Origin: Clavelina lepadiformis
Lineage: Eukaryota
Assembly: GCF_947623445.1 (NCBI RefSeq)
Contig: NC_135246.1
Span: 18,964,288 to 19,028,287, forward strand
Direction: 5' to 3'
Length of the DNA: 64,000 nt
The notes below the pieces were generated by a model. It ran no database searches. It saw only the letters and a list, made by a program, of their open reading frames with translations, and was not told where the DNA came from. Positions 22,441 through 43,620 of this stretch are shown one piece after another. How positions within the stretch are numbered: position 1 is the stretch's first letter; each line of letters starts with the position of its first letter. The position numbers and the translations under genes were made by a program.

Positions 22441-22718
22441 AGACTACCATCGAAACCTGACGTAATTTCCCGTTTGGTTTACGCCTAAATATGTAAGAAT
22501 ATCTTTGCTAGGCCTTGTGACATGTTAAATCACTGCAATGATCTAAATGCCAACTTTTGATTTTAATGAGTTAAATTGATATCGCCAAATATAAGTTTAA
22601 AGACTAACATCAATTATGCCTAATCACCACAAAGTTATTTTGTTAGCAGGTTATGCTAAGGAGTGCTGTAAAATCTTTTTTGAATAATTTTCGCAGTTAT
22701 CAGTTAGGATTACAAGCA

Positions 22719-24303: not shown

Positions 24304-24447
24304 ATGGGGCTGTTCGAAGAGAACCCGCTGTTCATAAACAAACTCTTTGTCCTCGATCTTGGATCTGCTTCGCATAAAACTAAGAAGAAGGTTCGTGAAA
24401 AGATCACAGAAAATGGCGGAACCATCTCATATATTTTGACAAAGAAG
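24304..24447 (+). CDS. PARP4: PARP4 exon: start codon and BRCT part 1 (MGLFEENPLFINKLFVLDLGSASHKTKKKVREKITENGGTISYILTKK)
   Basis: matches human MVMGIFANCIFCLKVKYLPQQQKKKLQTDIKENGGKFSF; donor AAG|gtgcgt. Confidence 0.65.
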
Positions 24448-24640
24448 GTGCGTTATAGTTTGTTGACAAAGCAGAAAGGTGTTATGTGACACTTTATTTG
24501 ACAAGTAAATTTGTGCTTAACTCTATATATATACGTATGCCTGTACACCAGTATATGAATAAGGTAACTTACATGAATAGAAAAAATTGCCCTACAAGCC
24601 TTAAAGTTTTTACGTTGTACATAACAGTGTTCTTATTCAG

Positions 24641-24842
24641 AGTCATTTTGTTGTGGTCCCACACAGCAAAGGAATCCGGGTAGATACATACAAGACTCGA
24701 AAAGCGCAACAGCTTGAAATTCCAGTTGTGTCGCAGGATTTTGTGTTTGATTGCGTCGAAAGAAATTGCATTGTTGACACAGACCAGTATTGTGCTGCTG
24801 GATTAACAAAAACTGACAAATTTAGCAAAGGAAAAATTCAGG
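24641..24842 (+). CDS. PARP4: PARP4 exon: BRCT part 2
   Basis: acceptor cttattcag; donor G|gtaagc; phase 0 to 1. Confidence 0.55.
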
Positions 24843-25219
24843 GTAAGCAAATAACTCGAAGTGAAAGGAGTAATTATATCTATTAATCTTTTCTTGTCTG
24901 CCACAGAAAACATTCTGTTCATACTTGATCCAAATACATGAGTCATCCCAATTGTGTTTTATTGTGACGTAATAAGAACCGCCATCCTCGTCATAATTAA
25001 GTGATAATTTGCATTTTTGACCACTAACCTATGGCAATAGCTGCTTAACTGCTACATATTAGTACAAATCCTTTCACCATATTTACTGACAACTACTCTT
25101 TGATTTAAGGCCAACTTGTTTTTGGATTTGCTCCTCACTGCAATAAATGAATATATACTTAACATTTATTGAACGTTTTACAATTTGCACAAATTAAGAT
25201 GGTATTTTTATAACTTTAG

Positions 25220-25377
25220 TGTCAAACTGGGATTCATTTTCTGGAAAAAGTCACACCAAAACCAAATTGACTTCCACACAAATACAAGCATTGGCATCAC
25301 GTCGGTATCAAAGTCATGCAAAAGATTGCCCAAAGTTTTCAGAAAATTTCAGTATCGTTAAATTTGCAATTCTACAG
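25220..25377 (+). CDS. PARP4: PARP4 exon (…DCPKFSENFSIVKFAILQ, compare human PQDFEVAKYNTLEKV)
   Basis: acceptor aactttag; donor CAG|gtgcat; phase 1 to 0, consistent with the preceding exon. Confidence 0.5.
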
Positions 25378-25585
25378 GTGCATTTAATTTCAAGGTTTAT
25401 TCCATTCATTTTCCACGTGATTAAGAAACTAACAAGAAAAATTCTAAATTTTTAATAAAATGTGTTGTAATGCCGGGCATTAAGCGAGAATGAAAATATT
25501 TATCAGAATTTTATGCTAATCTGTAATTACAATGACTATTATCATCATGATGTTTCAACAATCACAACAGTTTCTTCCACTTTAG

Positions 25586-25773
25586 GGTGCAAAGCAAGGA
25601 AAAAACGCTGACAATACCCAGATCTTGTGCATTGTGGAAATGCATGTTCCCGTTGCATTGAAAAGTGAAGCAAATCCAGCCAACTACGTCAGGATATTGG
25701 AGCAATCTTGTGAAAAGAATTCATCGATTGATGAAGTTACCAAAAAGCAGTCATTGGAATACTTCTTTGACAG
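25586..25773 (+). CDS. PARP4: PARP4 exon (GAKQGKNADNTQILCIVEMHVPVALKSEANPANYVRILEQSCEKNSSIDEVTKKQSLEYFFD)
   Basis: acceptor ccactttag; donor GACAG|gttgag. Confidence 0.5.
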
Positions 25774-25946
25774 GTTGAGTCAACCGTTTACACATTTCCG
25801 ATGTTCTATTGTTTCCTGTTGGTTATTGTTGATGCAATTTATGCATAAGCTGGTGCGTGCATAAACCTGACACCGGGCTATATAATTATAATGATGTTGT
25901 TTTTGATTTCTTGTTGAAATGTTGTTTTTGACACTTTGTTTTGCAG

Positions 25947-26064
25947 TTGCACCAAGGCGTTGACCTATATGCAGTACTTGGTGAATGAAAAAGTTGCAAA
26001 ATTGCACTTGGTGGTTGTTCATCAAATGCCGTCAATAAAACTTGGCTCTTCAAAACTGAGACAA
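25947..26064 (+). CDS. PARP4: PARP4 exon (SCTKALTYMQYLVNEKVAKLHLVVVHQMPSIKLGSSKLRQ)
   Basis: acceptor tttgcag; donor CAA|gtaatg; phase-consistent. Confidence 0.45.
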
Positions 26065-26440
26065 GTAATGATTTTTTTTAAATTTACTCCTCAAGTTTAT
26101 ACTCAGTGTTGTTTTCGTTCTTTTAAAAGAGAAGCTTTTCTGGCTCGGAAAATAGGTTAAGTTTTGTGTGAATACATTAAAGACACTGAAAGCAGCAATT
26201 GACATAATACATTGACATAATACATTTGACATAATACATCCCAATACACTGTCTACTGTGAAGTAGCATAGGGCACAGCAATTACTACAGAAAGAAACAT
26301 TTAAATTTTGCTGCAGTTGTTTTATTATTGTCTGGTTGATTTTGTAATGTTCCACGAATGTTTCATGACATATCTGTGTAATAAAAAAGTCAGGCAAAAT
26401 TTTCATTATCATCTCTAACCTCATCATCCTTTATCCTCAG

Positions 26441-26581
26441 ATGCTCGATGAGATGGGAGCATCTGGTGGTGTGCTTCATCCTGAAGTGACAAAGTTGGTT
26501 TACGGCATTGCCACTCTTGCGTTTGGTGAACTTCGAAACGGTTTGAGCCACAGAGATGTTGCAAGCATCACTCCTGATGAG
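26441..26581 (+). CDS. PARP4: PARP4 exon (MLDEMGASGGVLHPEVTKLVYGIATLAFGELRNGLSHRDVASITPDE)
   Basis: acceptor tcctcag; donor GAG|gtgttc. Confidence 0.45.
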
Positions 26582-26702
26582 GTGTTCTAGTTGCTGGAAA
26601 ACTCATTTAAGTTTGTCCTAGAAACAATATAAAGTTTACAAATAGAATAAGTTTAAGTTTGCCATGGAAATACTATAAAATGGAATTTCTGACTTTCACC
26701 AG

Positions 26703-26867
26703 ATCACCAAGGCAGTTGTCATCCTGATGAAAATCCGGAAATCAATCGACAACAACATGGACACGTCCGACTTGTCTAACGACTTTCACTCTCTTCTTTC
26801 CCTCACTGGTCCTTGTGAGGTCATAAACGACAAAAAAGTTTTGTCTCGGAAACAAGACTTTGTCCAG
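26703..26867 (+). CDS. PARP4: PARP4 exon (ITKAVVILMKIRKSIDNNMDTSDLSNDFHSLLSLTGPCEVINDKKVLSRKQDFVQ)
   Basis: acceptor tttcaccag; donor CAG|gttttc. Confidence 0.45.
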
Positions 26868-26967
26868 GTTTTCATTTGATATTTTTAAAACCGTTGCGGA
26901 TAAAATTGTTCTGCGGTAATAAAAAAGTTATCAATCCCATAGACATGATATTGTGTGTTGCGTGCAG

Positions 26968-27176
26968 CTTCTGAAAGATACGATGCTTCTCTCCGAGAGT
27001 ACTTCGAACGAAATTATGACATCACTGGGAAGGAAAGACAGAAATGAAGACGATAAGTTTTCTGTCGTCGCTCCTTTGTACAAAATGTTCAAGAGCGCCA
27101 TCGTCTGCTTAGAAGATGATGATTCTGAATACATCGACATCCTAAAACTTCTCAGGAAAGAAACTGAATCGAACAG
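26968..27176 (+). CDS. PARP4: PARP4 exon (LLKDTMLLSESTSNEIMTSLGRKDRNEDDKFSVVAPLYKMFKSAIVCLEDDDSEYIDILKLLRKETESN)
   Basis: acceptor cgtgcag; donor AG|gtaaaa. Confidence 0.45.
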
Positions 27177-27469
27177 GTAAAATTTTATTTATTTGATGCT
27201 GTAATTGTAAACCAGTCTTATCTAGCAGTTGTAGTGTGTGCCGCCTGGGCCATGTTATTCATGCTTCGATGTTTATAATTTCAAGTTATAGCATTTATTT
27301 TAAATACGTTGAAAAGTAGAAGAGTTTTTTTTTGATTTTCCGATATTTTGACTATTCTGAAACAGTAATTTTTATAGTAGTTTGAAAAAATTTCATATTA
27401 TTTGTGTTGAGTTTAGCGTAGTCTTTACCAAAAAAACAGTTCAGCTCACGTAAATGCCATTATTTTTAG

Positions 27470-27575
27470 CTTTCAAGTGAGGAACATTTTTCGAGTTCAT
27501 CGTGGCATTGAAGATTCAAATTTCACACAATCGCTTCAGCCCACCAGGCTTCTCTTCCACGCATCAAACCCACAG
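27470..27575 (+). CDS. PARP4: PARP4 exon: catalytic domain start with His of the H-Y-E triad (…FQVRNIFRVHRGIEDSNFTQSLQPTRLLFHASNPQ)
   Basis: matches human VLQIFRVGRVNETTEFLSKLGNVRPLLHGSPVQ; acceptor tattttag; donor CAG|gtgaaa. Confidence 0.7.
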
Positions 27576-27713
27576 GTGAAAGTACAATTGCTTTCATTCG
27601 TAATGCAACTTAGTTTGTGTGGGCCTCCATTTAGTTTTTCTGCTTTCAAATGCGTGGTTGTAATCGAGTGTAGAACAACCAGTGGAAGTAGTTTTGAAAA
27701 ATTTTTTTATCAG

Positions 27714-27835
27714 AACTTTATCGGGATCTTATCTCGGGGCTTATTACCCCCTCTAGTGGTTGTGAGTGAGCACGGAGGAGAAAGAAGTGATGTCGGGATG
27801 CTTGGAAACGCCATTTATTTTGCCGATGACGCAAG
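27714..27835 (+). CDS. PARP4: PARP4 exon: catalytic domain with the Tyr position (NFIGILSRGLLPPLVVVSEHGGERSDVGMLGNAIYFADDA)
   Basis: matches human NIVGILCRGLLLPKVVEDRGVQRTDVGNLGSGIYFSD. Confidence 0.7.
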
Positions 27836-28019
27836 GTTCGTCAGATCAACCAACAGATTCCTGCTTTAGTTGAAAGTGTCACAGAAAATCTTAAATTGTT
27901 TAGAAGATAAAGATAAAGTTTTAATCTTCTGGAGTGGAACCTTCTAAATTTTTAGCGTAGAATATTTTCTTAACAAACAATTTTCTTAATAAACAATTTT
28001 TGAATTTCTTGATTTGTAG

Positions 28020-28247
28020 GACGAGTCTTCAGTTTTCAAAAGTTAATCCTGTCACTGGAACACGACTCATGCTTGTCAACGAGGTTGCGCTAGGACATTG
28101 TCATGACTACAATAGACATATGCCATCGCTCACTTGCCCACCAGAGGGCTATGACAGTGTACGGGGAATTGGGCGACGAAATGATCCGAGCTCGGAGTTT
28201 GAGAATAATGAATACGGGATATACAACGTGGCTCAGCAAAGAATGAG
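28020..28247 (+). CDS. PARP4: PARP4 exon: catalytic domain with the Glu position (…TGTRLMLVNEVALGHCHDYNRHMPSLTCPPEGYDSVRGIGRRNDPSSEFENNEYGIYNVAQQRM)
   Basis: matches human TDGTRLLLICDVALGKC…APPGYDSVHGV…DFEDDEFVVYKTNQVKM. Confidence 0.7.
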
Positions 28248-28615
28248 GTCATTTTATGGATGTTTTTGATTTGAGTGGAAACTTCATTTCAGACTGAAAT
28301 TTTGAACAAGGAATTTTTTAACATGCTACAAATCAGTGTTTTTGAATGTTCACATTGCTGAATATTTTGTTTATCACTTCAGTGTACCTTGCCGACATTG
28401 TTAGTACTGAGTGTGTAGAAAAACTGTTGAAAAAAAGAAAAAACCTTGTGCGAACATGCGATCAGTTTAACAGATTATTTACATTGATTTTTGTGTGCAA
28501 AATGCTCCCATTAGTTAAAATACTCACGTATCAAATTATTGAACAATGCTATGAAAACCGTCCCTCAATATATCCTGGTATTTTTTGGAATTAATTGTTA
28601 GCTTTCTTTTTGCAG

Positions 28616-28649
28616 ATACTTGATAGAGTTTGTGCTCCCGGATGACAAG
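28616..28649 (+). CDS. PARP4: PARP4 small exon (YLIEFVLPDDK, compare human YIIKFSMPGDQ)
   Basis: acceptor tttgcag; donor AAG|gtatgt; phase-consistent. Confidence 0.55.
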
Positions 28650-29046
28650 GTATGTCCAATAAGTTGTCCTCCTGCCAGCCTAGATATTGTGAACAAGATG
28701 GAAGGTTATGAAATGGTGGGTATTCTGGGTTCATGGTTGTTGGAAAAAACTTTTAAATTGTTACGATGTTTATTAAATGTTCAAAGTCGTGTTTGATATG
28801 TTTTTAAAACTTATTTTCTGTCAGTCAAGGCATCAAACAAGGTTTAAGCCCAAATAACCATGGAAAATTTATATGCTTAACTCTCCTACTGTTTTGCTGT
28901 TTTTTCATCAATGTCGGGATGTGTAGTTCGCTCCATTTGATTTCTTTTTGTTTTTGTTTATCACCCAACCAACCTTACACAAACACAATCTGCAAAACAA
29001 CACAAAGTAACTTAAGCTTAAGTCTAATGTAGAAAAATATTCAACT

Positions 29047-29190
29047 TCTATCTGAAGGTGGATTTCATTGACATCGAACTCAGAAGCGATCCACTGGACA
29101 AGGTCAAGCCTGGTTTGCTCATCAAGCATGAAGGAGAAGAAGTTCAAGTCCCGCTGCGGGAAGTCCATGTCAGAGCCAAGATGATGGACA
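29047..29190 (+). CDS. PARP4: PARP4 exon (VDFIDIELRSDPLDKVKPGLLIKHEGEEVQVPLREVHVRAKMMDMVAE)
   Basis: compare human LVPLEDVHIKGRIIDTVAQ; 144 nt. Confidence 0.55.
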
Positions 29191-29435
29191 TGGTTGCTGA
29201 GGTTGGAATCTATGTCATTGTTAATTTCGTGTAATATTAATAGATATCATAAACTTGCTATTGTTCTATGGTGCTTGTATTTGGTATGGTTCATTTTTTA
29301 TGGATATTTAGATTTCGTTTATGTATAGATTTAGATTCTGTTTTGATTCGTCATCTTTGGTGAAGTTGAGAATACCGTGTTCAGTAAAATATTCAAACCT
29401 CAGTCTTACATGTCAGTTCTCAATTCTTTGAACAG

Positions 29436-29567
29436 GTCGTTGTCATGCAAGCTTATGCAAATGACTCAGATGCGGCCGTTGAAGCAAAATACGTCTTTCC
29501 ACTCGATGACTCTGCTGCTGTTTGTGGTTTTGAAGCTTTCATCAATGGAAAACACGTTGTCGGCAAG
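29436..29567 (+). CDS. PARP4: PARP4 exon: VIT domain start (VVVMQAYANDSDAAVEAKYVFPLDDSAAVCGFEAFINGKHVVGK)
   Basis: matches human VIVFQTYTNKSHVPIEAKYIFPLDDKAAVCGFEAFINGKHIVGE. Confidence 0.75.
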
Positions 29568-29865
29568 GTTTCTAATTATGATGCAATATCCTCATTGAAA
29601 AATTATCGCAAAAGTCACGGCCATTTACTTTATGCAAATAGAACCACAGTTTTGTCTGTTAAAATGTCCACCAAGGAAAATGCAACTTTTATCGTTCTCA
29701 TTTAATTCAAATCTCCATAAGGAAACTTTGCAACATTTGAAAACTTTGTCTTTTTGTTCAAACTGAAACCATAAAATTAAAAAAATCAATTTCATCTTGT
29801 CAACATCAGTTAAAATCTTGGACCTTTTCTTGAAAGACCGGATGTAAAACCTTCATCTTTTACAG

Positions 29866-29952
29866 GTCAAGGAGAAGGAAGTTGCTCACAAGGAGTACCG
29901 GGAGGCAGTGGAAGCTGGACATGGAGCTTATTTAATGGATGAGGAAAAAGCC
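29866..29952 (+). CDS. PARP4: PARP4 exon: VIT (VKEKEVAHKEYREAVEAGHGAYLMDEEKA)
   Basis: matches human IKEKEEAQQEYLEAVTQGHGAYLMSQDAP. Confidence 0.7.
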
Positions 29953-30174
29953 GTGAGGATAATTTACTGTTTGTGCACAATTTTTTCTTTGTGTATTTAT
30001 GAGCTTACATGCATATTGCTGCGGTCTATTTGTGTTCTTTAAGATAGATGAGCTTTGCCGGATTTGTGATGTCATAGCGGAAGTGTTTATTTTTATAAAA
30101 AAATTCCAAAACAGCAGTTTAACAAATTTTTAATCTTTCAAATCGAATGTTGTTTCTATTTTTTCTCTACGAAG

Positions 30175-30404
30175 GATGTTTTCACCGTCAGTGTCGGGAA
30201 TCTTCCTCCAGGAGCAAAAGTTCTCATAAAAATAACCTATGTTGCCGAGTTACCCGTTATCCCCGGCACCGATGGATCATCGGATTCGATCCAGTTTTAT
30301 CTTCCAGCCTCAGTAGCGCCATCAGTGAGGAACGACATGCTGATATCCGGTCCAGTCACCCAGACAATGACGGACAGAGTCACGGCTGACAGAGGTCAAA
30401 CGAG
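30175..30404 (+). CDS. PARP4: PARP4 exon: VIT (DVFTVSVGNLPPGAKVLIKITYVAELPV…RVTADRGQT)
   Basis: matches human DVFTVSVGNLPPKAKVLIKITYITELSI; the downstream donor was chosen by phase continuity. Confidence 0.6.
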
Positions 30405-30537
30405 GTGGCCAATCAATTATTTTCGCATCGAGCATTTTGAGTTTTATTTCATTTATGACCCTCCTGTTGGAATGAGTGGTCTTTTTGCTCTCTGGAGTTG
30501 CTGATTTGTTCTCACCTTTAGTTTTATGTTCTTTCAG

Positions 30538-30619
30538 CGTCACGTCATTGGTTGTGTCGGTTGAAATGCCGTTTGATATTCGCAAAATTGAGTCACCAAC
30601 TCATAGAGTTCATATCAAG
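30538..30619 (+). CDS. PARP4: PARP4 exon (SVTSLVVSVEMPFDIRKIESPTHRVHIK; compare human SFSLTMSIEMPYVIEFIFSDTHELKQK)
   Basis: acceptor ctttcag; donor AAG|gtcggt. Confidence 0.6.
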
Positions 30620-30772
30620 GTCGGTGTCATCGGAATCTAAGCGGAGCCATTATTTGAAAAAAAATTCATTTTAATCGTGTTGTCTGATGCAGTGAGAACG
30701 AATACAGTTTTGAAAAGTATCAGATCTTGCTTTTCACAGTTAATCAACATGGTCTGATTTTTGTGTTTGCAG

Positions 30773-30913
30773 AAAACTGCTGCAAAAGCTTGCGTACGTC
30801 TCGCGCTAAAAGAAAATCTGGGAGACAGGGATTTTCGTTTGTTGGTGAGTCTGGCTGAAATTCATGTTCCGAGAATGTGGGTAGAGCGCCACCCGGAAGA
30901 CTCAGACAGTCAG
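30773..30913 (+). CDS. PARP4: PARP4 exon (KTAAKACVRLALKENLGDRDFRLLVSLAEIHVPRMWVERHPEDSDSQ; compare human LSAAYLPRMWVEKHPEKESEA)
   Basis: acceptor gtttgcag; donor CAG|gttcga. Confidence 0.6.
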
Positions 30914-31222
30914 GTTCGAATTTGTGAATTTTGTGTTTTATTCTATTCTCAGTTTATTATAGCATATTCTAAAGAGACAAAAATTGCTTTATTATGAAAA
31001 GTTTTTTTTTCTGGTGATTGTTATGTATGTTTCATAAAATAATATGCTTGTCAACGTGTCCATAACTACTGGAAAAGAAAATAAGTCTTTATGAAAACAC
31101 TTCTGGTTTTCTTGCAAAAACCATTTCATAATTTCTTGTATAGATTTGTGTTACATGTGTGTAATATTGTTGCTTATATATTATTTACTATATATTTATG
31201 TTATGGTATCCCAATGTTCCAG

Positions 31223-31354
31223 GCATGTATGGTTGCTTTCTATCCCGAATTTGATGCCAAGCCAATATCAGATTACAAGGCGGTTATCATGTTGGACATG
31301 TCACGGTCAATGGCAACAACGCCACCAAACAACCTGGAACGTGAAGTAAAAAAG
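31223..31354 (+). CDS. PARP4: PARP4 exon: vWA start with a DxSxS MIDAS-like motif (…AVIMLDMSRSMATTPPNNLEREVKK)
   Basis: compare human VIICLDCSSSMEGVTFLQAKQIAL. Confidence 0.6.
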
Positions 31355-31447
31355 GTGAAATAATCAGCAATAACCACCTCAATTAGCTCGGTTTTAGGGT
31401 TCAATGAAAGCTTATTTCCAGTGCTTTTATGATTATTTTCTGCTCAG

Positions 31448-31591
31448 TTGGCGTTAATGATAGTTGCCAATCTTCCTCAATGCTGCACAATCAATGTCGT
31501 TCGTTTTGGTTCAACGTATCAGGAATTATTCATCCTTGAACAGCCGCTCAGTGATAATATTATTCGAGAGAAGTCGGAGGCATTCATCCAG
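31448..31591 (+). CDS. PARP4: PARP4 exon: vWA (LALMIVANLPQCCTINVVRFGSTYQELFILEQPLSDNIIREKSEAFIQ)
   Basis: compare human NIIQFGTGYKELFSYPKHITSNTMAAEFI. Confidence 0.55.
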
Positions 31592-31910
31592 GTAAGCGAT
31601 AACTTTTCACATAAAACGGAAAAAAATTAAAAGCTAATATTTTTGTAAACATCAGCTTTTTGTGTTCTTTTAACTCCTGAAATGTCTCATCCTGCTGTGT
31701 TGAAATCATGCAAATATTTTTCATTTTGATGTAATACTTTTTAGGACTTGTCGTAGACTAAAGCAAATATTTACTGCATGAAGATTTCTATTGATATGTT
31801 AATCAAGGTGGAGACATAGATTGATCCATCGTCACTTGTTCAGCATCAATCAACTTTTATTTCTATTGAAGAGAATTTTAAATATTTTCCTAAAACGAAA
31901 TGTTTTGCAG

Positions 31911-32131
31911 CAATGTTCTGCTTTGATACTTGGTTCATCCGATGCCTGGCGACCTTTGACCTCGTTAGCGAACATCCAAAACTCGCCAGGTCATTCCGAT
32001 CAGATCACAAACATATTCCTGCTTTCCGATGGTCACCTCAGTGAAGAGGGGGTCCTGCTGCAGCTCTCCGCATCACTTGGAGGAGGAGGAAAGGATGGCG
32101 GCATCACCCGGATATTCACGTTTAGTGTTGG
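31911..32131 (+). CDS. PARP4: PARP4 exon: vWA (…WRPLTSLANIQNSPGHSDQITNIFLLSDGHLSEEGVLLQLSASLGGGGKDGGITRIFTFSVG)
   Basis: compare human NILLVSDGHLQDESLTLQLVKRS…TRLFACGIG. Confidence 0.6.
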
Positions 32132-32222
32132 GTGAGTTGATGCTGTAGAAGTTGTTTCATTTTTTCTTGCCGTGAACTTTTGAACTTCACTGACCCTTCA
32201 CTTTTATACGTGACATTTGTAG

Positions 32223-32322
32223 CTCAACTGCCAATCAGCATTTGATGAAGGGCATTGCGACTGCATCTGGTGGCGCTCATGAGCATTTCAGCAGTGACTC
32301 AAAATCGAAATGGCGAGGCAAG
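32223..32322 (+). CDS. PARP4: PARP4 exon: vWA end (STANQHLMKGIATASGGAHEHFSSDSKSKWRGK)
   Basis: compare human STANRHVLRILSQCGAGVFEYFNAKSKHSWRKQ. Confidence 0.65.
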
Positions 32323-32625
32323 GTTTGTAAAGTGAATTGCAATAACATTGGCATGATCTTGTGTAAAGTGTTCTTTTTTATCTTAAAAGAAAACATGAAA
32401 TATTACAACCAGTGTTTTTGCTTAAACTTTCGTAGCTTTTGAATTTTGAATTGGAGGTGGAGATGTTTTCTATATTGCAGTTGTTAGATAATTTCTAAAG
32501 ATTACCTGAAGTTACTATAAACTTTTTCTTTTCATTGCACCAACGTTGGCAAATGAATGATGTTTTGCCACCAGCTTGACAATAAAAGTTTGAGAAAGTG
32601 ACAATGTGACTCATAATTGCATGCA

Positions 32626-32812
32626 GGTTAAAAGTCAGTTGGAAAAATCCAGTCAGCCACTGCTGACAGATATCAGGATTGAATGGAAAAGGTTCGATGA
32701 TGCTTTTATGAACGCAGAAATCGATTTTCCGATACAAGCTCCGGAAAAAATAAAATCTCTCTTCAATTCGTCACGCTTGGTCGCATACAGTTTCATACCT
32801 CACTGCACACAG
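32626..32812 (+). CDS. PARP4: PARP4 exon (VKSQLEKSSQPLLTDIRIEWKRF…LVAYSFIPHCTQ)
   Basis: compare human LLVYGFIPHCTQ; my reading of the printed sequence disagrees by 1 nt with the ORF-track frame here, so coordinates may be off by 1. Confidence 0.55.
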
Positions 32813-32879
32813 GTAAATTCATGCAACTGCCTAATATGGTCATGAAGGAAGTTTTAATGACTGTATTATCCTGTCATAG

Positions 32880-32960
32880 GCAGAATTGTTTGCAAAAGTT
32901 TGTGGAAGTGAAATATCAGCTGTTGTGTCGACGTCAGATTTGAGCATAACAACCGGGAAG
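32880..32960 (+). CDS. PARP4: PARP4 exon (AELFAKVCGSEISAVVSTSDLSITTGK)
   Basis: compare human ATLCALIQEKEFRTMVSTTELQKTTGT. Confidence 0.55.
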
Positions 32961-33196
32961 GTGATTACAACATCATTCCACTTTTCCTGTTTCATTTATT
33001 TCTCAGTATATCAATAGTTTGTGTATAATTTTTGCTATTTTTTGAATTTGCTAACATAAATTTTAGTTGTTTAGTTTTGAAAACGATAGATTAAACAGGT
33101 ACAATTGTGCATGTATGGCATTGCAAATATGCAAGAACATTTCTTGTTGAGTGTATTTCACCTCTAAACGGTTAAAAAAGCTGTCATTGTTTTCAG

Positions 33197-33379
33197 ACTC
33201 TTCATCGACTTACAGCTCGAGCGATGATCCGAGATTACGAAGACGGAGCGCACGATGTTGATCCGTTGCTCCGTGACAAGATAAAGACGACACGAAAACC
33301 TCACATCATCGAACTGAGCATTTCTCAAGATGTTGTTTCTCCTTACACCAGCTTCGTCGCCATTGAGAAGAGAGAAGAG
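33197..33379 (+). CDS. PARP4: PARP4 exon (TLHRLTARAMIRDYEDGAHDVDPLLRDKIKTTRKPHIIELSISQDVVSPYTSFVAIEKREE)
   Basis: compare human MIHKLAARALIRDYEDG…TSFVAVEKRDE; alternative donor at 33387. Confidence 0.6.
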
Positions 33380-33444
33380 GTGGAAAGGTTGTAAAGATTC
33401 AAAACTGATCTCTTTGAACTGAACGGTGTTTGTACTTGGAATAG

Positions 33445-33558
33445 GGTGAAGATTTAACAACCAACGAAGGTCCGACGATAAATGAGCTCGTAGCGATTGA
33501 AGATGTCGATGTCATCCCTGAGGTGGCATGGGAGGAGGAGGTTATAGAGGAAGACGTC
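33445..33558 (+). CDS. PARP4: PARP4 exon (GEDLTTNEGPTINELVAIEDVDVIPEVAWEEEVIEEDV)
   Basis: compare human PKVSELIAKEDVDFLPYMSWQGE; donor GTC|gtaaga. Confidence 0.5.
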
Positions 33559-34360
33559 GTAAGATGATCGGATACTTTTATTGAGTTGATTTATCTTAGT
33601 TAATTAATGTCAAGTGTTTTATTCTTATCATAAGTCAGAAGTATTTTATCGATAAAATTCACATTAACTTGTTCAAGTCCATGCTTCATGCACGGCACGA
33701 GATACTTTTTTGCCGTGAATGTATCAGCTATGTGTGTTGAGAGATTGTACTTGTCTACGTCAAACCATTATGCAACAAAATGTCATTCAATGCAGCCCAT
33801 TTTATACCCGAACGTAATCTCTGACTCCAGTTAATTAACCTGCTGCGTTAATAGCCCTTGTACTTTACCAGTCTCTGAGCCGACACAGTAACAACAATCC
33901 GACTTGTCAGGTTTTTTTTTATTCAGGGCTTCGCAGCTTACTGGCTAGCTTGGTCTTATACAACTCATCACGGTAATAAATTGAAGTATTAATATATGCT
34001 CAAAACAAAAGGCGGTAAAACATCATTATAGAATTTCTTATTTTGCGTTTACACTCTCCCAAAACACAGTGTGCTAATGTCCCAAACCAGTTGCCGAATA
34101 TATGGCGTTATGGTTTATCGTTCTTTCAGTTTGGTAAATGTCTGAGATTGATTGTAGAAGTCATAATGAATAATTTAATGAGCGGAATGCTCCAACTTGA
34201 CATTTGCAGGTGATGATGCACCATCATGTAGCACTTAATGCAGTCATTTATCATCAGTTCTAGTCTAGCCGTTACATTTTACATGCAATGTTTGCCTTAC
34301 ATTGCGTAGTTTTTTTAAAAATTGATCGGTTTAAAAATCTGAGATATATTTAGACTCCCA

Positions 34361-34548
34361 TAGACAACTTGAGGAAGGAATTAGAAGCGGCTGAGGTGTC
34401 GTACGGAACTTCAGTTTTCCAATCTCAACGCCACTTTGAAAGTGCAAACGATCTAGCAGACAGTTTGTGTGATGTTGAACGGAAGGAAGCAGAGATTTGG
34501 ATAGCTGCAACCAGGTCAAAGTTAAACATGGAAACCAATCTACCATGT
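34361..34548 (+). CDS. PARP4: possible PARP4 exon (…RKELEAAEVSYGTSVFQSQRHFESANDLADSLCDVERKEAEIWIAATRSKLNMETNLP); phase link to neighbours not established
   Basis: stop-free frame between ag and gtacgt; no homology support. Confidence 0.25.
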
Positions 34549-34834
34549 ACGTTAGAAAATTTGCTGTTTGCCTTACAGATTGTATTATATTTTTAAGCAT
34601 TGCAAACGTGTAAAGTTATTGGTTATTATCTGTATTTTAGGAGATGTTTTTATCGTTATTTGAATTATAGTTTGTCAATCTCTTGTAGACATTTGTTATT
34701 ACAACTTTCTTGTTAGTACTTTGTAATTTTTATTTATTACAATTGATTTATTGCTTTAAAAATCAAACATATTTTGTTTCATCCCATGTAACTTTGCGCT
34801 TAGATTGACAATTTTCTTGTCGATATTTTTCCAG

Positions 34835-35072
34835 CTGTTAACAGCGACATGGTCAAATTGTTGTCTAAATCAGAAAACAACGAGGAATTACTTCGCACTT
34901 TCGCCACAATTTTGTCAACGCACGACATATCCGAATGGTGTCTTTGTTCGGCCGAGTCAAAGGAGATAATTCCGATGGTGACCCTTCTCTTGGCTTCGAT
35001 TCGCAAGTTAGATATCACTGATCTCACTGATACTAAGATTATGGAATGGAAAAATCATCTAAATAAACTATC
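34835..35072 (+). CDS. PARP4: PARP4 exon (…VNSDMVKLLSKSENNEELLRTFATILSTHDISEWCLCSAESKEIIPMVTLLLASIRKLDITDLTDTKIMEWKNHLNKL)
   Basis: acceptor tttttccag; donor tcg|gtaagt; its phase (2) joins in frame with the following large exon. Confidence 0.45.
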
Positions 35073-35405
35073 GTAAGTATCCTATCTTTGATTGTCATCG
35101 TATTTGTCGTCCATTATTGTTGTATCGCATTAAAATTAGAAGCAACTTTATTTTTCAAACACATAAGTAGGTTGAATAACTTTTTCTCAGCTGAGATAGT
35201 TATTACAATAGACCTGTTAATTACTTTAAATATTATTATTATCTTATTCATATTAAGATATTTTGTTTGTAAAACTAAGAACTTTCAAATCCAGCAATTT
35301 CTTTCGTTTGCATTTTTAGTTCTTTCCAAACCAGTGCAAAACTATTGTGTAAGAATGAGAATTTATGTGACTAGAGTTTGTGAATTTCCTTATTTAATTC
35401 TGCAG

Positions 35406-37402
35406 GGATCATGTTGTGAGCTCAGATGAAAGATATTCTGAACATGAAAGATCGTCATCATCATTTGATTTTGATTCAGCGGCTATGTGGGGTCTGTCTA
35501 GTAGTGCTTCTTATTCAGAGGCCTCTTCTTCACACTCCGATCCTTCATCATCTTCCCCTCTTAGAACTAATTACCGACAAAGTCGAGCTCCGCACGATTC
35601 TGAAAGCTCCGATGATGAAATGGGATTCTGTGTGGTGGATTGCTTCATGGATGTTTGTCCCACTCCGGTGGTCATTGATGCAGGAAGCGACTCTGTGAAG
35701 TTGGGTTACGCTGGGAAGCCTGCTCCGGAGGCTTCCATCCCGACCATCGTTGGAAGACCGCGGCACAAAGGTGTGATGGTTGGTATGGGACAGAAAGATT
35801 CTTATGTTGGGTCAGAGATTGATGACAGCAGAGTTAGAGAATTTAGCCCGGACGCCATTTCAAGTTCGAAACGTTTCAAGAAGATGAGGAAGAAATTAAG
35901 TGCTTTCTCGAAAGCATCTTCAGCTCGAGATGTGGTGCCTGATGGCAATAACAGAAGGTCAAGATCAAGAAGCAGATCCAGGGAGAGAAGAAGCTCAAAA
36001 GATTCACCAAATGTGGATTATCTTCGAGATATGATGTCGAACGCGATGAGTTCAATGCTGCAGCGATCAGCTGATGATGAACTGCAAGATAAATCTTCTC
36101 CAGTTTACATCCCAACAAGTCCAAGTTTTGCTCAAATTGAGAAATTGGAGCCAACGGTTGAATGTGATTTGTTATCCGATGAGCCGCTGGAAGCCCAGAC
36201 GAAAGATATTTCTCCATGGAAGGCTCTAAATGCAGAAGACAAGTTGGCTGAAGGTCCGGCAACATTCGGTGCTGCACAAGCTCACACCAGGTTTAATGAC
36301 CAACCACTGTCGCCACCAAAAGCAGATTTATCCTCAAGTATACCAGCCTTATTTCTATCCTCACGCCGTGTACAGGGTGATCCTGTGCCTGGTCTGACTC
36401 AGTCTTTTGGTGTCCGACCGCCATTGGCAGGAGGGGTGTCTGGGCAGTTGTTTGGGGCTTCTTCGCAGAACCAAGTAGTATTTGATAACTCAAGCGTTTC
36501 ACAATCGTCAGGGAATTTCGGGGGATTTGGTGCATTACGTGCAGCAAACATTCCTGCTGGGCTGTTTGGAGCCAAATCACGATCTCCGACCCAGCATGTT
36601 AATTCTTTGGCTGCACCGCATTCACCACCAGCATCTTTGGAGGAAGAGTCCATGGAGGTATCGTGGGAATCTGCCTCAAAACCTGTGCAACCCCAACTAG
36701 AGAGTGACTTGTTATTTGATGTTTCTCTGGCTGCGCCACCACCACCTCCTCCTCCAACATCTTTCTCATCTGATGTTCCACCACCTCCTGGAGCCTTTGC
36801 CCCTCCACCTCCACTAGCCCGAGGATTCAGTGGATCATCATCACGACGGCCTCCACCGCGTCGTAACCGATTATCACCACAAGAAAGAGAGACCAGGTTA
36901 TGCGAAGAAACGCCAGAAATTGCGAATCAATATCGTCCTCCAGCCGCGACTACATTCAATGCTGCATCATACTATCCACAGAAAACAATGCTTACCAAAT
37001 CCATAGAGAACTTTACTCCACCTCATCCTAAGCTGACTGAGGAACCAGACTCACTCAAGGCGTCCACATCACCGAGTGTAGTGTCAACACCAGCATTAGA
37101 AAGCATATTTGGAACAGAAATTTTTACAACGACACGGGCACGACGAAAGACCTCTTTATTGGCTGAATTGTGTCCAGATAAACAGAAACTATCCGTGGAG
37201 AGTAATCGTCGAATGCGAAGGTCAAGACGACGTTTAACAAGCGTTGCAGGAAACTGCCCAAGCATCATCGGAGAATTACTTAACTTGGCACCGCCTAATC
37301 CTTCTCAGTTGCTGACCAGGATTACTGGAGATGTTTTTTCACGTTTATCTTCAGAGGATGTTCGCTTAATGGCCGTAGAACTTGGAAAGTTCGAGCAGGT
37401 TC
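35406..37402 (+). CDS. PARP4: PARP4 large low-complexity exon (~2 kb; Ser/Pro/Arg-rich). It contains an actin N-terminal-like segment at about 35626-35830 and a polyproline stretch ([27 protein letters not shown]). The 3' boundary is unresolved: donor at 37398, donor at 37402, or the stop at 37435
   Basis: 672-codon open frame in an AT-rich genome; in frame with the upstream exon through acceptor ctgcag at 35405; resembles the human PARP4 S/P-rich region (…SKRKHRKIPFSKRKMELS… vs [18 protein letters not shown]). Confidence 0.55.
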
Positions 37403-37766
37403 GTTCGACTTCTTTCTATTTATCTTCAACATGAAAGGAAACTTTGTTTTACAGTGTTTTCATGCTTTTTATCACTATATTTTCAATCATATTGTTCACT
37501 ATTTCTTTCAATTATGTTATGTGTTAAATCTGATATTTAAGACATTAATTTATTTCATACTTTTGTTCAATAATCTTGCCGTTGTCTCCGACACAGGGCC
37601 ATAGTTTTTGGTTTCTTCCCTTGTCAGATGAGAGGTTTGAGAAAGTAACGGTGAGTTGCAGAAATGTACTCAAGGAAGTTGGCGCATTATCACTGGGTAG
37701 GAAAAAAGAAAATGTATAGACTTGTCCTTGCATCATTTATTAATGTTAGTCGTGAATTTCTGACAG

Positions 37767-37831
37767 GAGAAAAGATTTATGCCACCTTGTGGAAGATGAT
37801 ATGCACTGCTTTTGTGATTTGGGCTCTCCAG
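37767..37831 (+). CDS. PARP4: PARP4 C-terminal exon (EKIYATLWKMICTAFVIWALQ; compare human LLDLIATMLVLQFIRTRLE)
   Basis: acceptor ttctgacag; donor CAG|gtactt. Confidence 0.5.
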
Positions 37832-37978
37832 GTACTTTGGTCAAATATTAAACATTGAGTATTTTTGTTTGAAAACCCATTTTTATAGCCGGAAGTCATT
37901 GGGTGTAATGTTCATTAATACATCATTAAAATGTGGGTTCGCAAACGTAACAATACAATTTTTGATTTCTGCTGGCAG

Positions 37979-38099
37979 CTTGCAGTCAGTATGAATGTGT
38001 TATATAACACCACGGTTGAAGAAATGTTAACGGTTGCTCAAAGTTGGCTCAAGAAACAAGACAGTGAGACTCCGAGCTTACATTTCAGGCTTGAACTTG
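37979..38099 (+). CDS. PARP4: PARP4 C-terminal exon (LAVSMNVLYNTTVEEMLTVAQSWLKKQDSETPSLHFRLEL)
   Basis: compare human IPWAFEAIKQASEWVRRTEGQYPSICPRLEL; donor TTG|gtaaga. Confidence 0.65.
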
Positions 38100-38727
38100 G
38101 TAAGAACTTCACTGTCTCAAGTAAATTTATTGCAGAAGACTTCGATGGACAAAGAAATTACAAAGCTTTTATATTAAATATAAAATATTTTTATATAAAT
38201 TACAAAGTTGTATTTTTCCTATTTTTGACGTTTGTTATGCCGGAACAAATGACAAAATCACAGTGATGTAACGTAGGGTTTTTAAACTATTTTTGTTCGT
38301 GGCCCCTTCATTCTGCTAGGAAATATGCATGTGACCTTATTGTACAGCATATAAAAGGCATAAACCACCCAATCTTTAACGAACCTTCCAACTTTCCTCA
38401 CATATTGATTCCATTTAATGATGTCATAATCACCACCAAACAAATTTAAAAGGTGCTTCAAACCTGCAACACAGTTTTGATCATAATTATTTAACAAGTA
38501 GGCCTGGGAAAAATTCTTAGCTTAATACGTATTAGAAACCTTCTTTGAAATTTGGTGAACTTGTTTCTGCAAAGCCTCCGCAAGACAACATTTTTGCAAC
38601 TTTAACTTCATATATTAGGTTTAAGAAAGCCCCGATGTAAAGCATCAAAGTATGGAATGTATTGTTCACCGAATGTATAAACCAGTGTGCAATGTTATGC
38701 TGTAATATTATTTTTTCTCATCCACAG

Positions 38728-41394: not shown

Positions 41395-41481
41395 AATTCT
41401 TGAAGTAGAACTGGTTGGAGTTCTTCTAATTCTAGGATCGTCATCCTGCACAATCTCACCATTTGCTAAAATACGAACCAT
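41395..41481 (-). CDS. FAM241B: FAM241-like exon 1 (MVRILANGEIVQDDDPRIRRTPTSSTSRI)
   Basis: ATG at 41479-41481 (minus); N-terminus MVRILANGEIVQDDDP as I recall it for FAM241B; donor ATT|gtaagt. Confidence 0.55.
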
Positions 41482-41991
41482 TCTATATGATAACTTTTAG
41501 TTTCTGAAAAAGAATTTAAGGGTTAAGGATAGTGTTTTTCAACCCTTAGAAAGACACTTTGTTTTATCACAAACATCTCATTTGGACATCCAACCAGTGA
41601 TGCAGATGAGTAGTCATAAAATCAAAATAAACTGCTAATAATGCAACAGAAATTTTTAAATGCCAAGTATTAACTGAAAAACTACGAGTATGAAATTGTA
41701 TAAAAATGAGAGATTTAATGATATAGGGTTTTTATCCACAATAGCATTCCCCATACGCACCAGTGCATTTGATGATATAGACAAGTAAGAAAAGAAATAA
41801 TTATGCTTAAACTGATAAACTGCCTCTGGTGCGAAACAAGGGCATAAAATACAATTAAAGTTTAAAAAATTATTAACAGAATCTGCTAACACAGCACATT
41901 CCTTAAAATAGCTTTAAGTTGTGCCTTGTAATTAGCATTACGTTCGACAAACTGTTTTACATGTGTCATTTATTACCATTACAGATCCATT

Positions 41992-43620
41992 TCAAAAATT
42001 ATCATTTTCTTGAGCAGTGTGGTTCTGGTTTCTTTCCCAAATTTCCACTTCTTTAACCATTTCATCATCAGAGAGTTCATTAAAACTATTTTTTAATCTC
42101 TCCTTGACGGCTTCGGGAAATGGAATGGGATCAGATCTGTAATTCCTGCATTCATAATCATGACATTTCTGATAGCAATACATTGTTTTTAGGTTGGCCA
42201 CGTATAAGATTCCATTGCTTTTATGTTCACGACCAATGTTTCCACAATACCTTGTTCCTGTGATTTCATATGATATGGTTTTGGTGGTTGGGAAATACCT
42301 TTGCATACGCACGAAGGCATCCGAATTAAATTGTTTTATTAGGTCAGTCACAAACGCATGTAGCTCCTTGAATGGTACGTCAGTGTCATTGTCTTCTGGT
42401 ATACATGACTCGTCATACTCAATGTTATGCGATGTTCCACTGACCAATTGGGAATTTTTATAAGGTGAAACATATGCGTTTGATTTTTTATCGTGTTCAG
42501 GCATTTCTAGTATTGTTAAATCATCACGATTAAAAACATTTGTTATAAACGAAGAAAAGAATATAAGTTCATCTCTACATTGAGTGAGCCCACCGTTTAA
42601 CTTCTTGGTTTTGCTTGGGGACATCATGTGATGCATGTGATGTGATGTGTGCATCATGTGATGCATGCAACAAGTTGTTCTGATGTTGACCGGTTCAAAG
42701 GGAAATTGACAATTCTCAGAAAGCTCCAACTCTCGAATTTTTCCTTTTTTACTGGAATGAAATAAACGGAAATTTCGATTGTTTGAATAAACAGATTGAT
42801 CAACGAATAATTGTTTTTCACCACTAGAACTTGTCACCAAAAGGTTGCTCAAGTCATCTGCATGGTCTAAAGAAGTTATCCAATGTTTGGCAATAGCATC
42901 AACATCACTAGATACGTCATTTTTCAGCTTAAGATAAGACAGCAGATCACAACAGATTTTTTTAACAAAGTTTCCAGCTTCCAAATTATTTTTAAAAGCT
43001 GCATTAGGTACATGCCAGATAAGATGTTGACTAAACTTGGTTTCTGTAGTGGAGTCCAATTCTACAACGTTTCGCCTTGAACAATTGACTTTAAATTCAT
43101 TGTACAGACATTTGCAAGTGTATGTGACCCACATTTGTATCATTGACTCTGTGTTTTTTGTCTTGTTCAAAGTCTTATCAAATTCCAGGTCAAAGTAGAG
43201 ATGACACAGAGCTCCTGATTGGATAAGCTCATAAAAATGTCTCTTTCCTTGAGCCATCTGAATGTAATACGACCAGAATTCTTCCAGACTTGCCACAACA
43301 TAACGCCTGGCCCCAGGTCTTGAGTTATCAATTTCGAAAGAAAACACAAAAGCATGTTGGTGCTTCTGAGTTTTTGCATAATCTATAGCATCGCTTTGTT
43401 TGTAAAATAGTTTCCACAATGGCGGTGGCAACCACACATCTGACAATCTTGGTTTGTAGGTCATTTTTACTGGATTCTCCTGATAATCTTTCATCCGCTT
43501 TTCAATATTGCACTGGTGTTTAGTTTTCAACTTTTTTATCATGGCGCCAACACAGAGCTTTCTATAACAAATTTTGCTAACATTAAAACAACAAAAGGTC
43601 CACGATTTCAACATCGTCAT
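41992..43620 (-). CDS. PRIMPOL: DNA-directed primase/polymerase PrimPol, apparently intronless (542 aa)
   Basis: archaeo-eukaryotic primase motifs: motif I CHLYFDLEF (DxE), motif II KFSQHLIWHV (SxH), motif III NFRLFHSSKKGK; UL52-like Zn finger CGNIGREHKSNGILYVANLKTMYCYQKCHDYEC; acidic C-terminal tail; colinear with human PRIMPOL. Confidence 0.85.
   Translation of the reverse strand: MTMLKSWTFCCFNVSKICYRKLCVGAMIKKLKTKHQCNIEKRMKDYQENPVKMTYKPRLSDVWLPPPLWKLFYKQSDAIDYAKTQKHQHAFVFSFEIDNSRPGARRYVVASLEEFWSYYIQMAQGKRHFYELIQSGALCHLYFDLEFDKTLNKTKNTESMIQMWVTYTCKCLYNEFKVNCSRRNVVELDSTTETKFSQHLIWHVPNAAFKNNLEAGNFVKKICCDLLSYLKLKNDVSSDVDAIAKHWITSLDHADDLSNLLVTSSSGEKQLFVDQSVYSNNRNFRLFHSSKKGKIRELELSENCQFPFEPVNIRTTCCMHHMMHTSHHMHHMMSPSKTKKLNGGLTQCRDELIFFSSFITNVFNRDDLTILEMPEHDKKSNAYVSPYKNSQLVSGTSHNIEYDESCIPEDNDTDVPFKELHAFVTDLIKQFNSDAFVRMQRYFPTTKTISYEITGTRYCGNIGREHKSNGILYVANLKTMYCYQKCHDYECRNYRSDPIPFPEAVKERLKNSFNELSDDEMVKEVEIWERNQNHTAQENDNF

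Follow-up and report, generated by a model that had tools for sequence, protein, structure and literature searches.

An actin-derived block in the tail of the vault PARP

We analyzed a 64-kb stretch of the genome of the tunicate Clavelina lepadiformis (contig NC_135246.1, positions 18,964,288 to 19,028,287; here called the window) and found that its PARP4 gene, which encodes the vault PARP, contains an in-frame copy of the first part of actin. As judged from its sequence, this block was copied long ago from the N-terminal ~60 to 70 residues of actin and has been maintained by selection, which has kept the DNase-I-binding loop (D-loop) together with its borders. It lies in frame in a predicted large exon of PARP4, between the exons of the vWA core and the C-terminal exons. 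Since the same block occupies the same place in the PARP4 of at least 13 other species from six animal phyla, it is not a peculiarity of Clavelina, as had been supposed in a first-pass annotation of the bare DNA letters.

The block is part of a 672-codon open reading frame on the forward strand (35416-37434 of the window), which translates as that annotation had quoted it. Frame residues 82 to 139, 58 in all, align with actin residues ~7 to 64. Against PDB sequences, phmmer matched them to actin residues 7 to 64 with an E value of 1.3e-15 (60 bits). The Pfam Actin profile (PF00022) was matched over positions 6 to 51 of its 410 at 32.2 bits (E 5.6e-8), and the block thus passes the family gathering cut-off of 27 bits. 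Finally, full-length actin used as a tblastn query against the window found the block at E 9.5e-18. The actin N-terminal-like segment is therefore real. Its D-loop stretch of 22 residues is identical to the Q41 form of actin at 21 positions, and at all 22 to actins having a lysine at that position, while manual residue-by-residue comparison of the N-terminal flank gave 12 identities out of 26; the values of 21/22 and about 50% given in the first-pass annotation were thus correct.

Full actin found no second actin piece in the whole 64-kb window (tblastn, E ≤ 10). The block is therefore not a decayed full-length actin copy, and a retro-copy of that kind, which we had considered as a candidate, was ruled out for want of further actin remnants in the 64 kb. 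Neither is the block a recent canonical actin pseudogene, in agreement with the first reading. About 15% of the complete four-subdomain actin fold (~375 residues) is present, only actin residues 9 to 63 being detectable, and phosphate-binding loop 1 (D11-N-G-S-G15) is not intact but reads DAGSD. Because some 300 residues of the fold are missing and the phosphate-binding loop is destroyed, the block cannot be an actin, bind nucleotide, or polymerize as actin does. A search with the whole exon was dominated by actins, and its top matches, scoring about twice as high as ordinary actins, were gene-model fusions of tandem actins, none of them PARP-like.

The conserved core is an island of near-identity to actin

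We next compared nine PARP4 copies of the block, from five phyla, with actin. In actin residues 36 to 55, 161 of the 166 aligned cells (97%) were identical to actin, compared to 53% in residues 5 to 35 and 37% in residues 56 to 72, and the tail around the block was unalignable. Outside the core, the hairpin scaffold residues D11, G13, G20, G23, and P27 were invariant, while G15 was replaced in all nine copies and N12 in eight of them; S33T was common to seven. Sponge and cnidarian copies reach actin residue ~72, and bilaterian copies end near residue 60. In pairwise comparisons between species, the block was 65 to 89% identical, whereas the 100 residues on either side of it were 13 to 28% identical. 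Such an island amid diverged flanks argues that the block is not merely an exonized actin fragment, which had been offered as an alternative, and the pattern as a whole indicates that it is probably under strong purifying selection.

AlphaFold2, run with the orthologue alignment, predicted strands at VVIDA, at SVKLGY, and at a third segment with predicted local distance difference test scores (pLDDT) of about 70 to 82, the mean of the model being 54. The invariant core had a pLDDT below 50 and is predicted to be flexible when alone. Since the most conserved part is thus predicted not to fold by itself, the model points to a partner as the source of the constraint on the core, and "D-loop mimic", the term used in the first annotation, remains a fair description of it.

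The block is embedded in the PARP4 gene

Four PARP4 orthologues used as tblastn queries gave colinear matches at 24328-33531 covering the BRCT, PARP catalytic, VIT, and vWA domains, with the actin block coming next. The order BRCT, PARP catalytic, VIT, vWA is found at the locus both by tblastn and in the annotated product: in assembly GCA_961645235.1, the gene annotated here encodes a 2,228-aa protein with matches to BRCT, PARP, VIT, VWA_3, and, weakly, Actin, so that an independent gene model includes the block. Candidate H, Y, and E catalytic motifs (LLFHASN, AIYFADDA, and NEYGIY) can be read by eye in the translated frames at 27477-28269. The actin block lies ~230 residues past the motif that ends the conserved core and ahead of the C-terminal domain (Table 1).

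The exon junctions at 35072 and 35405/35406, which the first-pass annotation had proposed on the basis of splice phase, carry consensus signals. The series AG/34835...35072/GTAAGT, AG/35406...37398/GTTCGT, and AG/37597 is phase-compatible, and the region 34835-37650 can be spliced without creating a stop codon. The peptide assembled from the C-terminal exons gave no match in a Pfam scan. By phmmer, it matched residues 1854 to 1934 of the 1,951 of Styela PARP4 (E 6.5e-9), residues 2251 to 2345 of the 2,354 of Nematostella PARP4, and the extreme PARP4 C termini (the last ~80 to 95 residues) of Trichoplax, Acropora, birds, and a sponge. As the downstream exons match the extreme end of PARP4, the large exon is internal to the gene. 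The orthologue matches, the C-terminal matches, and the 2,228-aa model thus all agree with the original placement of the block in a PARP4 exon between the vWA and C-terminal exons. That the Clavelina mRNA includes this exon is a prediction drawn from the gene model, the logic of the splice sites, and the comparison with orthologues.

Together, these data bear on the possibility that the block is a neutral actin retro-fragment recently exonized in the Clavelina genome, or an artifact of the gene model or assembly, in which case it would be intronic or belong to another transcript. Some public models near such blocks are indeed imperfect: those of Amphiura and Ptychodera stop at the block, and that of Pinctada continues into calmodulin-like sequence. 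Against this stand the 672-codon open frame with consensus splice sites and matching phase on both sides, the orthologous blocks of 13 further species, some of them seen in RefSeq models and, for Nematostella and Hydra, in every isoform, the module-bearing PARP4-like transcripts of Euglena, Diplonema, and Entosiphon described below, and the lack of any remainder of actin in the window. We consider this explanation largely refuted and the least probable of those discussed here.

Occurrence of the block in other animals

We built a composite query from the PARP4 exons of the window minus the actin core. It retrieved PARP4 orthologues, several of which already had a Pfam Actin match. By local phmmer, the actin segment (about residues 2 to 72) was located near residue 1,300 of PARP4 in the sponge Ephydatia, the cnidarians Hydractinia and Rhopilema, the bivalves Mytilus, Saccostrea, and Pinctada, the hemichordate Ptychodera, and the ophiuroid Amphiura. 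An exhaustive HMMER search over 1.84 billion representatives added the oyster Magallana gigas, Nematostella, Hydra, and the flatworm Macrostomum, all with the same core. The core was at the same position in all five full-length RefSeq isoforms of Nematostella and in all three of Hydra. That orthologues in related genomes carry the block bears out a check proposed with the first annotation. Vertebrates, Styela, amphioxus, and gastropods have a PARP4 without the actin block.

Two of these loci were inspected at the DNA level. In Ptychodera flava (CM083792.1; coordinates are those of the examined locus), the actin block is contiguous in one exon (41413-41703), while a 14-3-3-like module is split over three (36568-37978). 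The Ptychodera RefSeq model stops shortly past the block. About 1 kb further on begins a gene of 1,077 aa that has no Pfam match; this neighbor is probably the remainder of the PARP4 tail. A degenerate 14-3-3 module like that of Ptychodera was also looked for in the small Clavelina exons at 34369-34596 and 34849-35072 and was rejected (hhalign probability of 0.1 and no relevant Pfam match).

In Amphiura filiformis (CM076873.1), the block is interrupted exactly past Q41, that is, at actin codon 41/42, which we take to be the intron site of chordate actin genes. Its first half (actin residues 17 to 41, ending in ...GRPRHQ) is present in about nine tandem copies with ~170-bp spacing at 86991-88508 of the examined locus. 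The second half (actin residues 42 to 76, through ...PIEH) lies ~2.5 kb downstream, at 90992-91096, where the next annotated gene begins; the RefSeq model of PARP4 is cut short at the block.

The Amphiura copy is what lends weight to the proposal that gene conversion from actin genes, or repeated re-capture of them, maintains the identity, rather than selection on PARP4. Besides being cut at codon 41/42 and having its first half in tandem, this copy keeps S33 and runs to ...PIEH (residue 73 and beyond), features indicating that it may have exchanged sequence at the DNA level with a genomic actin gene, in at least the Amphiura lineage. Elsewhere, however, the changes in the flanks are inherited within clades (VMDMGSL..EFET in bivalves and DTGM[AH] in cnidarians), and only the core is identical to actin, which would demand that conversion tracts stay limited to ~60 nucleotides in all lineages for hundreds of millions of years, an implausible process. 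Moreover, the block is contiguous in one exon in Clavelina and in Ptychodera, and the window contains no actin gene. As a general explanation, gene conversion is therefore very improbable.

Copies of other hub proteins occur in this linker

We then surveyed the tails of vault PARPs for further modules by Pfam and phmmer, and by motif scans of 260 PARP4-family proteins; all the modules reported here lie downstream of the vWA domain. A 14-3-3 module, either its C-terminal half or all of it, was found in amphioxus, Ptychodera, Gigantopelta, three dictyostelids, and Entosiphon. Complete ubiquitin, with many copies ending in LRLRGG, was present in seven gastropods, Sinanodonta, Euglena, and two Diplonema species, and calmodulin-type EF-hands in Pinctada, Mytilus, and Bodo. 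Ras-family modules occurred in two Pelomyxa paralogues, a synaptobrevin (R-SNARE) fragment in Bodo, and the C-terminal peptide of the ribosomal P-stalk in a sponge, gastropods, a millipede, two fishes, dictyostelids, and Euglena.

The last of these also has a candidate counterpart in the window, a motif of 15 residues directly upstream of the actin block. It is likened to ...SDDDMGFGLFD, except that the LFD end is replaced by VVD, and it resembles EEESDEEMGFCLFD of Batillaria; Pfam made no call for it in the window. The pattern arose in 4 of 20,000 shuffles of the window exon, and it occurred 16 times in 13 of the 260 proteins, always in the tail. In the PARP4-like tails of Euglena and Dictyostelium purpureum, Pfam Ribosomal_60s was above its cut-off, and two fish PARP4 tails keep the P-stalk-like sequences SEESDDDMGFGLWD and ESDDDVGFGLYD.

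The tails can change while the core does not. Two Hydractinia paralogues are 90.7% identical over 1,209 aa of core and have unrelated tails, one with the actin block and the other with FG-like repeats (regular GFCFG). We rejected the view that this pair represents alternative isoforms, as the two differ by ~10% throughout; they are paralogues or haplotypes with different tails. Similarly, two Saccostrea paralogues have cores that are 90% identical and unrelated tails, and the two PARP4s of Pelomyxa schiedti carry different tail modules, one Ran-like and the other Rab-like.

Module-bearing vault PARPs were thus found in animals, Amoebozoa (dictyostelids and Pelomyxa), and Euglenozoa (Euglena, Diplonema, Entosiphon, and Bodo). 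Those of Euglena, Diplonema, and Entosiphon come from transcriptome assemblies, which is evidence at the mRNA level for the fusions being real, and their presence in Euglenozoa suggests that the vault-PARP family is older than previously inferred. No PARP4-tail match was obtained with other abundant proteins, namely, cyclophilin A, profilin, cofilin, thymosin beta-4, thioredoxin, FKBP12, LC8, Skp1, H3, and the C termini of tubulin and HSP90, all of which were approximate query sequences. Since the modules that were found all derive from very conserved hub proteins and appear interchangeable, they point to a general logic of the linker, in which the copy of a hub protein would serve as an adaptor.

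Several single tails merit separate mention. In the gastropods, the internal ubiquitin modules are full length, and because several of them end in LRLRGG with more sequence beyond, ordinary deubiquitinases might cut these PARP4s there, leaving a PARP4-ubiquitin with a free GG end. The Ephydatia muelleri tail contains, besides its actin block and two peptides of the P-stalk type, proline-rich repeats followed by LLNDVTKGVSLKKV at residues ~1500 to 1670; this sequence was the sole match to a WH2 pattern (of the type LLxxIxxGxxLKK[VT]) among the 260 proteins, and the pattern scan found no WH2 motif in the window exon. The R-SNARE fragment of Bodo saltans (Pfam E 2.5e-8) adjoins the EF-hands. An environmental PARP4-like tail includes a sequence like the N-terminal tail of histone H4, GRGGKGLGKGGAKRGAKLLRN (E 6.5e-4), and the D. 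purpureum tail gave a weak match to the heptads of the RNA polymerase II C-terminal domain (21.8 bits).

Possible roles of the block

We favor, at about an even chance of being right, the explanation that the block is a displayed mimic of the actin subdomain-2 surface, which would bait factors that grip the D-loop and bring them to PARP4 and the vault. The disordered linker would display a flexible copy of the D-loop (actin residues 36 to 55), and the factors that normally grip this loop on actin would bind to the copy and thereby be brought beside the PARP4 catalytic head. With PARP4 anchored to the vault, bound factors could be carried into it and be ADP-ribosylated, sequestered, or positioned. 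Such a partner could be another actin subunit, through its barbed-face cleft, an enzyme directed at the D-loop, or a protein that binds this loop. Both the binding of partners and their fate are what we infer from the anatomy, gene context, spread, and conservation of the block and from the family of modules to which it belongs.

Several observations weigh against this explanation. R37, P38, Y53, and G55, which are buried in real actin, are also invariant in the copies, and a surface mimic need not keep them. A peptide of 20 residues excised from its fold may not take the conformation that partners recognize, and large partners would have limited access to the tail once PARP4 is bound to the vault, as it then faces the lumen. 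The role of the block is dispensable or replaceable, since vertebrates, Styela, amphioxus, and gastropods do without it. Lastly, because the Amphiura copy is split at codon 41/42 and looks more actin-like, a single origin of the block is not certain.

A more specific version of the bait model takes actin itself as the partner. The D-loop copy would insert into the barbed-face cleft of G- or F-actin and, together with the proline tracts, link PARP4 and vaults to actin or to the barbed-end machinery, thus acting as a cytoskeletal tether. This is consistent with the FH1/EVH1-type proline runs that are common in PARP4 tails, including that of the window, and with the canonical-looking WH2 motif past the proline repeats of the sponge tail. 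It is also consistent with the SKRGIL sequence (actin residues 60 to 65) kept in sponge and cnidarian copies, which in F-actin is the second longitudinal contact loop of subdomain 2. However, residues 60 to 72 are lost in the bilaterian copies, and the WH2 motif is confined to the sponge tail, with none in the window or in the other proteins of the 260. We also know of no report that D-loop peptides on their own bind actin, which likewise counts against a tether. A cytoskeletal link was proposed earlier (Perina 2014; PMC4245714), and PARP4 and MVP were co-purified with Evl/VASP from dendritic cells (PMC9581539). A tether would nevertheless leave unexplained the 14-3-3, ubiquitin, calmodulin, Ras, SNARE, and P-stalk pieces of the same linker, and we consider it possible but unlikely.

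Alternatively, the block and the other hub modules may form an integrated decoy, a bait facing pathogens, so that toxins or effectors targeting the D-loop would be trapped in the vault and be ADP-ribosylated or sensed there. This analogy is one that we draw tentatively and think improbable on present evidence. In its favor, though entirely by circumstance, the modules turn over between lineages, and paralogues with the same core swap tails, as in immune receptor families. Such turnover on a conserved chassis was found between the paralogues of Hydractinia, Saccostrea, and Pelomyxa, and between phyla, which differ in their modules. Furthermore, actin, calmodulin, 14-3-3, ubiquitin, small GTPases, SNAREs, and the P-stalk peptide are classic targets or activating cofactors of bacterial toxins and ribosome-inactivating proteins. 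Against it, those same proteins are just the ones that stand out among hub proteins for their conservation and abundance, and cyclophilin, profilin, and cofilin were not found in the tails with our query panel. We know of no effector that needs only actin residues 36 to 55. A further point in favor is that recurrent positive selection in vertebrate PARP4 falls on the equivalent exon alone (PMC4038475); the actin block, however, is apparently under purifying selection, which would fit the tracking of a target, yet gives no arms-race signal in the block itself. TEP1, a partner of PARP4 in the vault, also speaks for a decoy, being a TIR-like NADase with kinship to an antiphage system (preprint 10.64898/2026.05.01.722283).

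Extending the decoy idea to the whole family, one may speculate that the vault PARP is an ancient eukaryotic bait array, displaying copies of those hub proteins with which intracellular pathogens and toxins have to make contact, in which effectors would be captured beside an ADP-ribosyltransferase and TEP1 in a closed cage; we regard this as a long shot, though one worth stating. Its baits would be the actin D-loop, calmodulin, 14-3-3, ubiquitin, Ran/Rab GTPases, the R-SNARE, and the P-stalk tail, and the vertebrate exon would, with equally little assurance, have shifted to rapidly evolving sequence.

Other features of the locus

The features of the PARP4 gene in the window are collected in Table 1. 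Among them are the RS run and the poly-proline run downstream of the block, both of which had been noted in the first-pass annotation and are present. Apart from the actin block, the large exon matched nothing in Pfam or PDB. A stretch rich in GLFG, SFG, and FGG (36391-36579) lies ahead of the FH1-like poly-proline tracts; Pfam Nucleoporin_FG reached only E 0.49, and the likeness to FG nucleoporins is an impression only. The same holds for the resemblance of a basic stretch of 15 residues (35869-35913) to the MARCKS effector domain, which is an impression and not a finding.

PARP4 is flanked by two intronless-looking frames. One is an APEX1 orthologue at 22653-23717 (+), 100% identical to a Clavelina lepadiformis protein when read from an internal methionine, and the other is a PrimPol-like frame at 41992-43620 (-), with a match to the Herpes_UL52-type primase zinc finger at E 4.8e-9.

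Table 1. Features of the Clavelina lepadiformis PARP4 locus (coordinates of the window)
Feature	Position	Strand	Remarks
PARP4 (vault PARP) gene	24304-38266 (approximate)	+	Annotated start to inferred stop codon; public annotation and orthologue tblastn
End-of-core motif GPTINELVAIEDVDVIPEVAWEEE	33469-33540	+	Resembles GPSIEELVSKENVDSLPYMGFEE and like motifs in orthologues; the variable tail begins there
Small tail exon	34835-35072	+	Acceptor AG, donor GTAAGT; passes 2 bases to the next exon; no recognizable module
Large disordered tail exon	35406-37398	+	1,993 nt, 664 codons; acceptor ctgcag/G, donor CAG/GTTCGT; counterpart by position of human PARP4 exon 30
P-stalk-like motif, 15 residues	35596-35640	+	Acidic/Ser run, then MGF-x-hydrophobic-hydrophobic-D
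Actin-like block	35659-35832	+	Actin ~7-64: three beta-strands of subdomain 1 plus the subdomain 2 D-loop; phmmer, Pfam, tblastn, and 8 orthologous blocks
Invariant core, 20 residues	35752-35811	+	Actin residues 36-55, D-loop with borders
RS dipeptide run, 14 residues	35953-35994	+	Comparable run in the Gigantopelta PARP4 tail
Poly-proline run, 7 P	36736-36756	+	Inside a 26-residue stretch; runs of ≥5 P common in invertebrate and vertebrate PARP4 tails
C-terminal exons 37597-37650, 37675-37696, 37767-37831, 37979-38266	37597-38266	+	Conserved PARP4 C terminus (presumed MVP-interacting, MINT); internal splice choice inferred

Significance

To our knowledge, the function of PARP4 and of the vault has been an open question for long, in the case of the vault for ~40 years, and the sole evolutionary clue until now was one disordered exon positively selected in vertebrates. 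Tunicates are the closest invertebrate relatives of vertebrates, and the tunicate counterpart of this exon holds a 20-residue stretch whose near-identity to the actin D-loop predates the divergence of sponges and bilaterians. Copies of other hub proteins are found in this linker across three eukaryotic supergroups. What had looked like a featureless disordered region thus resolves into distinct peptides and domains whose partners can be predicted, and which could serve as baits in assays. With conservation this deep and precise, and a module family this broad, the block is a useful and rather unexpected lead on what PARP4 and the vault do. If the bait array were true, the vault would have a concrete role in innate immunity that can be put to the test, and integrated decoys would for the first time have been described beyond plant NLRs.

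Comparison with known systems

Actin on a vault PARP had been thought undescribed when the window was first annotated. This overstated the novelty, because the architecture was catalogued in 2014: Perina et al. (DNA Repair 23:4-16; PMC4245714, section 3.1.2) reported that PARP4-like (Clade 5) proteins can carry an added domain, whether actin or actin-binding, 14-3-3, or ubiquitin-related, the extra domain, for example, actin, being C-terminal. They listed 14-3-3 in dictyostelids, Acanthamoeba, amphioxus, sea urchin, and Capsaspora, ubiquitin-related domains in Acanthamoeba, and actin or actin-binding domains in Salpingoeca, Capsaspora, and Acanthamoeba, and placed the origin of the clade in the ancestral unikont. 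These architectures share with that of Clavelina the core (PARP catalytic, VIT, and vWA) and an actin-matching domain C-terminal to vWA, where other lineages have 14-3-3 and ubiquitin; an actin-homologous domain C-terminal to vWA is just what we found in the Clavelina PARP4. However, the 2014 account consists of SMART/Pfam matches in one paragraph and a figure. It gives neither the limit at residues ~2 to 72 nor the invariant D-loop, and it does not include the metazoan spread to tunicates, the P-stalk, calmodulin, Ras, and SNARE pieces, the tail swaps of paralogues, or the Euglenozoa.

Daugherty et al. (2014; PMC4038475) found that the largest PARP4 exon is disordered and that positive selection on vertebrate PARP4 (in primates, bats, and others) is restricted to it. 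They proposed it as a host-pathogen interface and found no homology to other proteins. The human exon 30 region (residues 1223 to 1582) has the same position in the gene as the Clavelina exon, being the largest exon and lying between vWA and the MVP-interacting domain, and it is likewise disordered, proline-rich, and variable in length and sequence. In contrast to the diversifying selection on the vertebrate exon, the Clavelina exon harbors an actin-derived island under apparently strong purifying selection, together with the P-stalk-like motif. A recent preprint (10.64898/2026.05.01.722283) describes PARP4 as tethered to the vault wall by its C-terminal domain, beside the TIR-like NADase TEP1. 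In the literature that we searched, beyond which other papers could exist, no publication joins the domains of Perina 2014 to the exon of Daugherty 2014, and none notes the actin limit at ~2 to 72 with its invariant D-loop or the P-stalk, calmodulin, Ras, and SNARE pieces. The value of the present work is thus one of characterization and synthesis, the first sighting of the actin, 14-3-3, and ubiquitin matches dating from 2014.

Compared to actin proper (PF00022), the PARP4 copies are nearly identical in residues 36 to 55 and keep D11, G13, G20, G23, and P27, and they differ in that the second phosphate loop, the hinge, and subdomains 3 and 4 are absent.

The POTE-actin fusion genes resemble the vault PARPs in that an actin piece is fused into an unrelated protein; they differ in that the piece is a full-length actin retrogene and is specific to primates. 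Integrated decoys of plant NLRs are pieces of host proteins placed in an unrelated multidomain protein; they are lineage-variable and paralogue-specific, and their effector-triggered outputs have been shown experimentally. The PARP4 tails are similar to them in carrying a host-protein piece in an unrelated protein with a lineage-variable repertoire, while the NLRs are set apart by their signaling chassis and their proven outputs.

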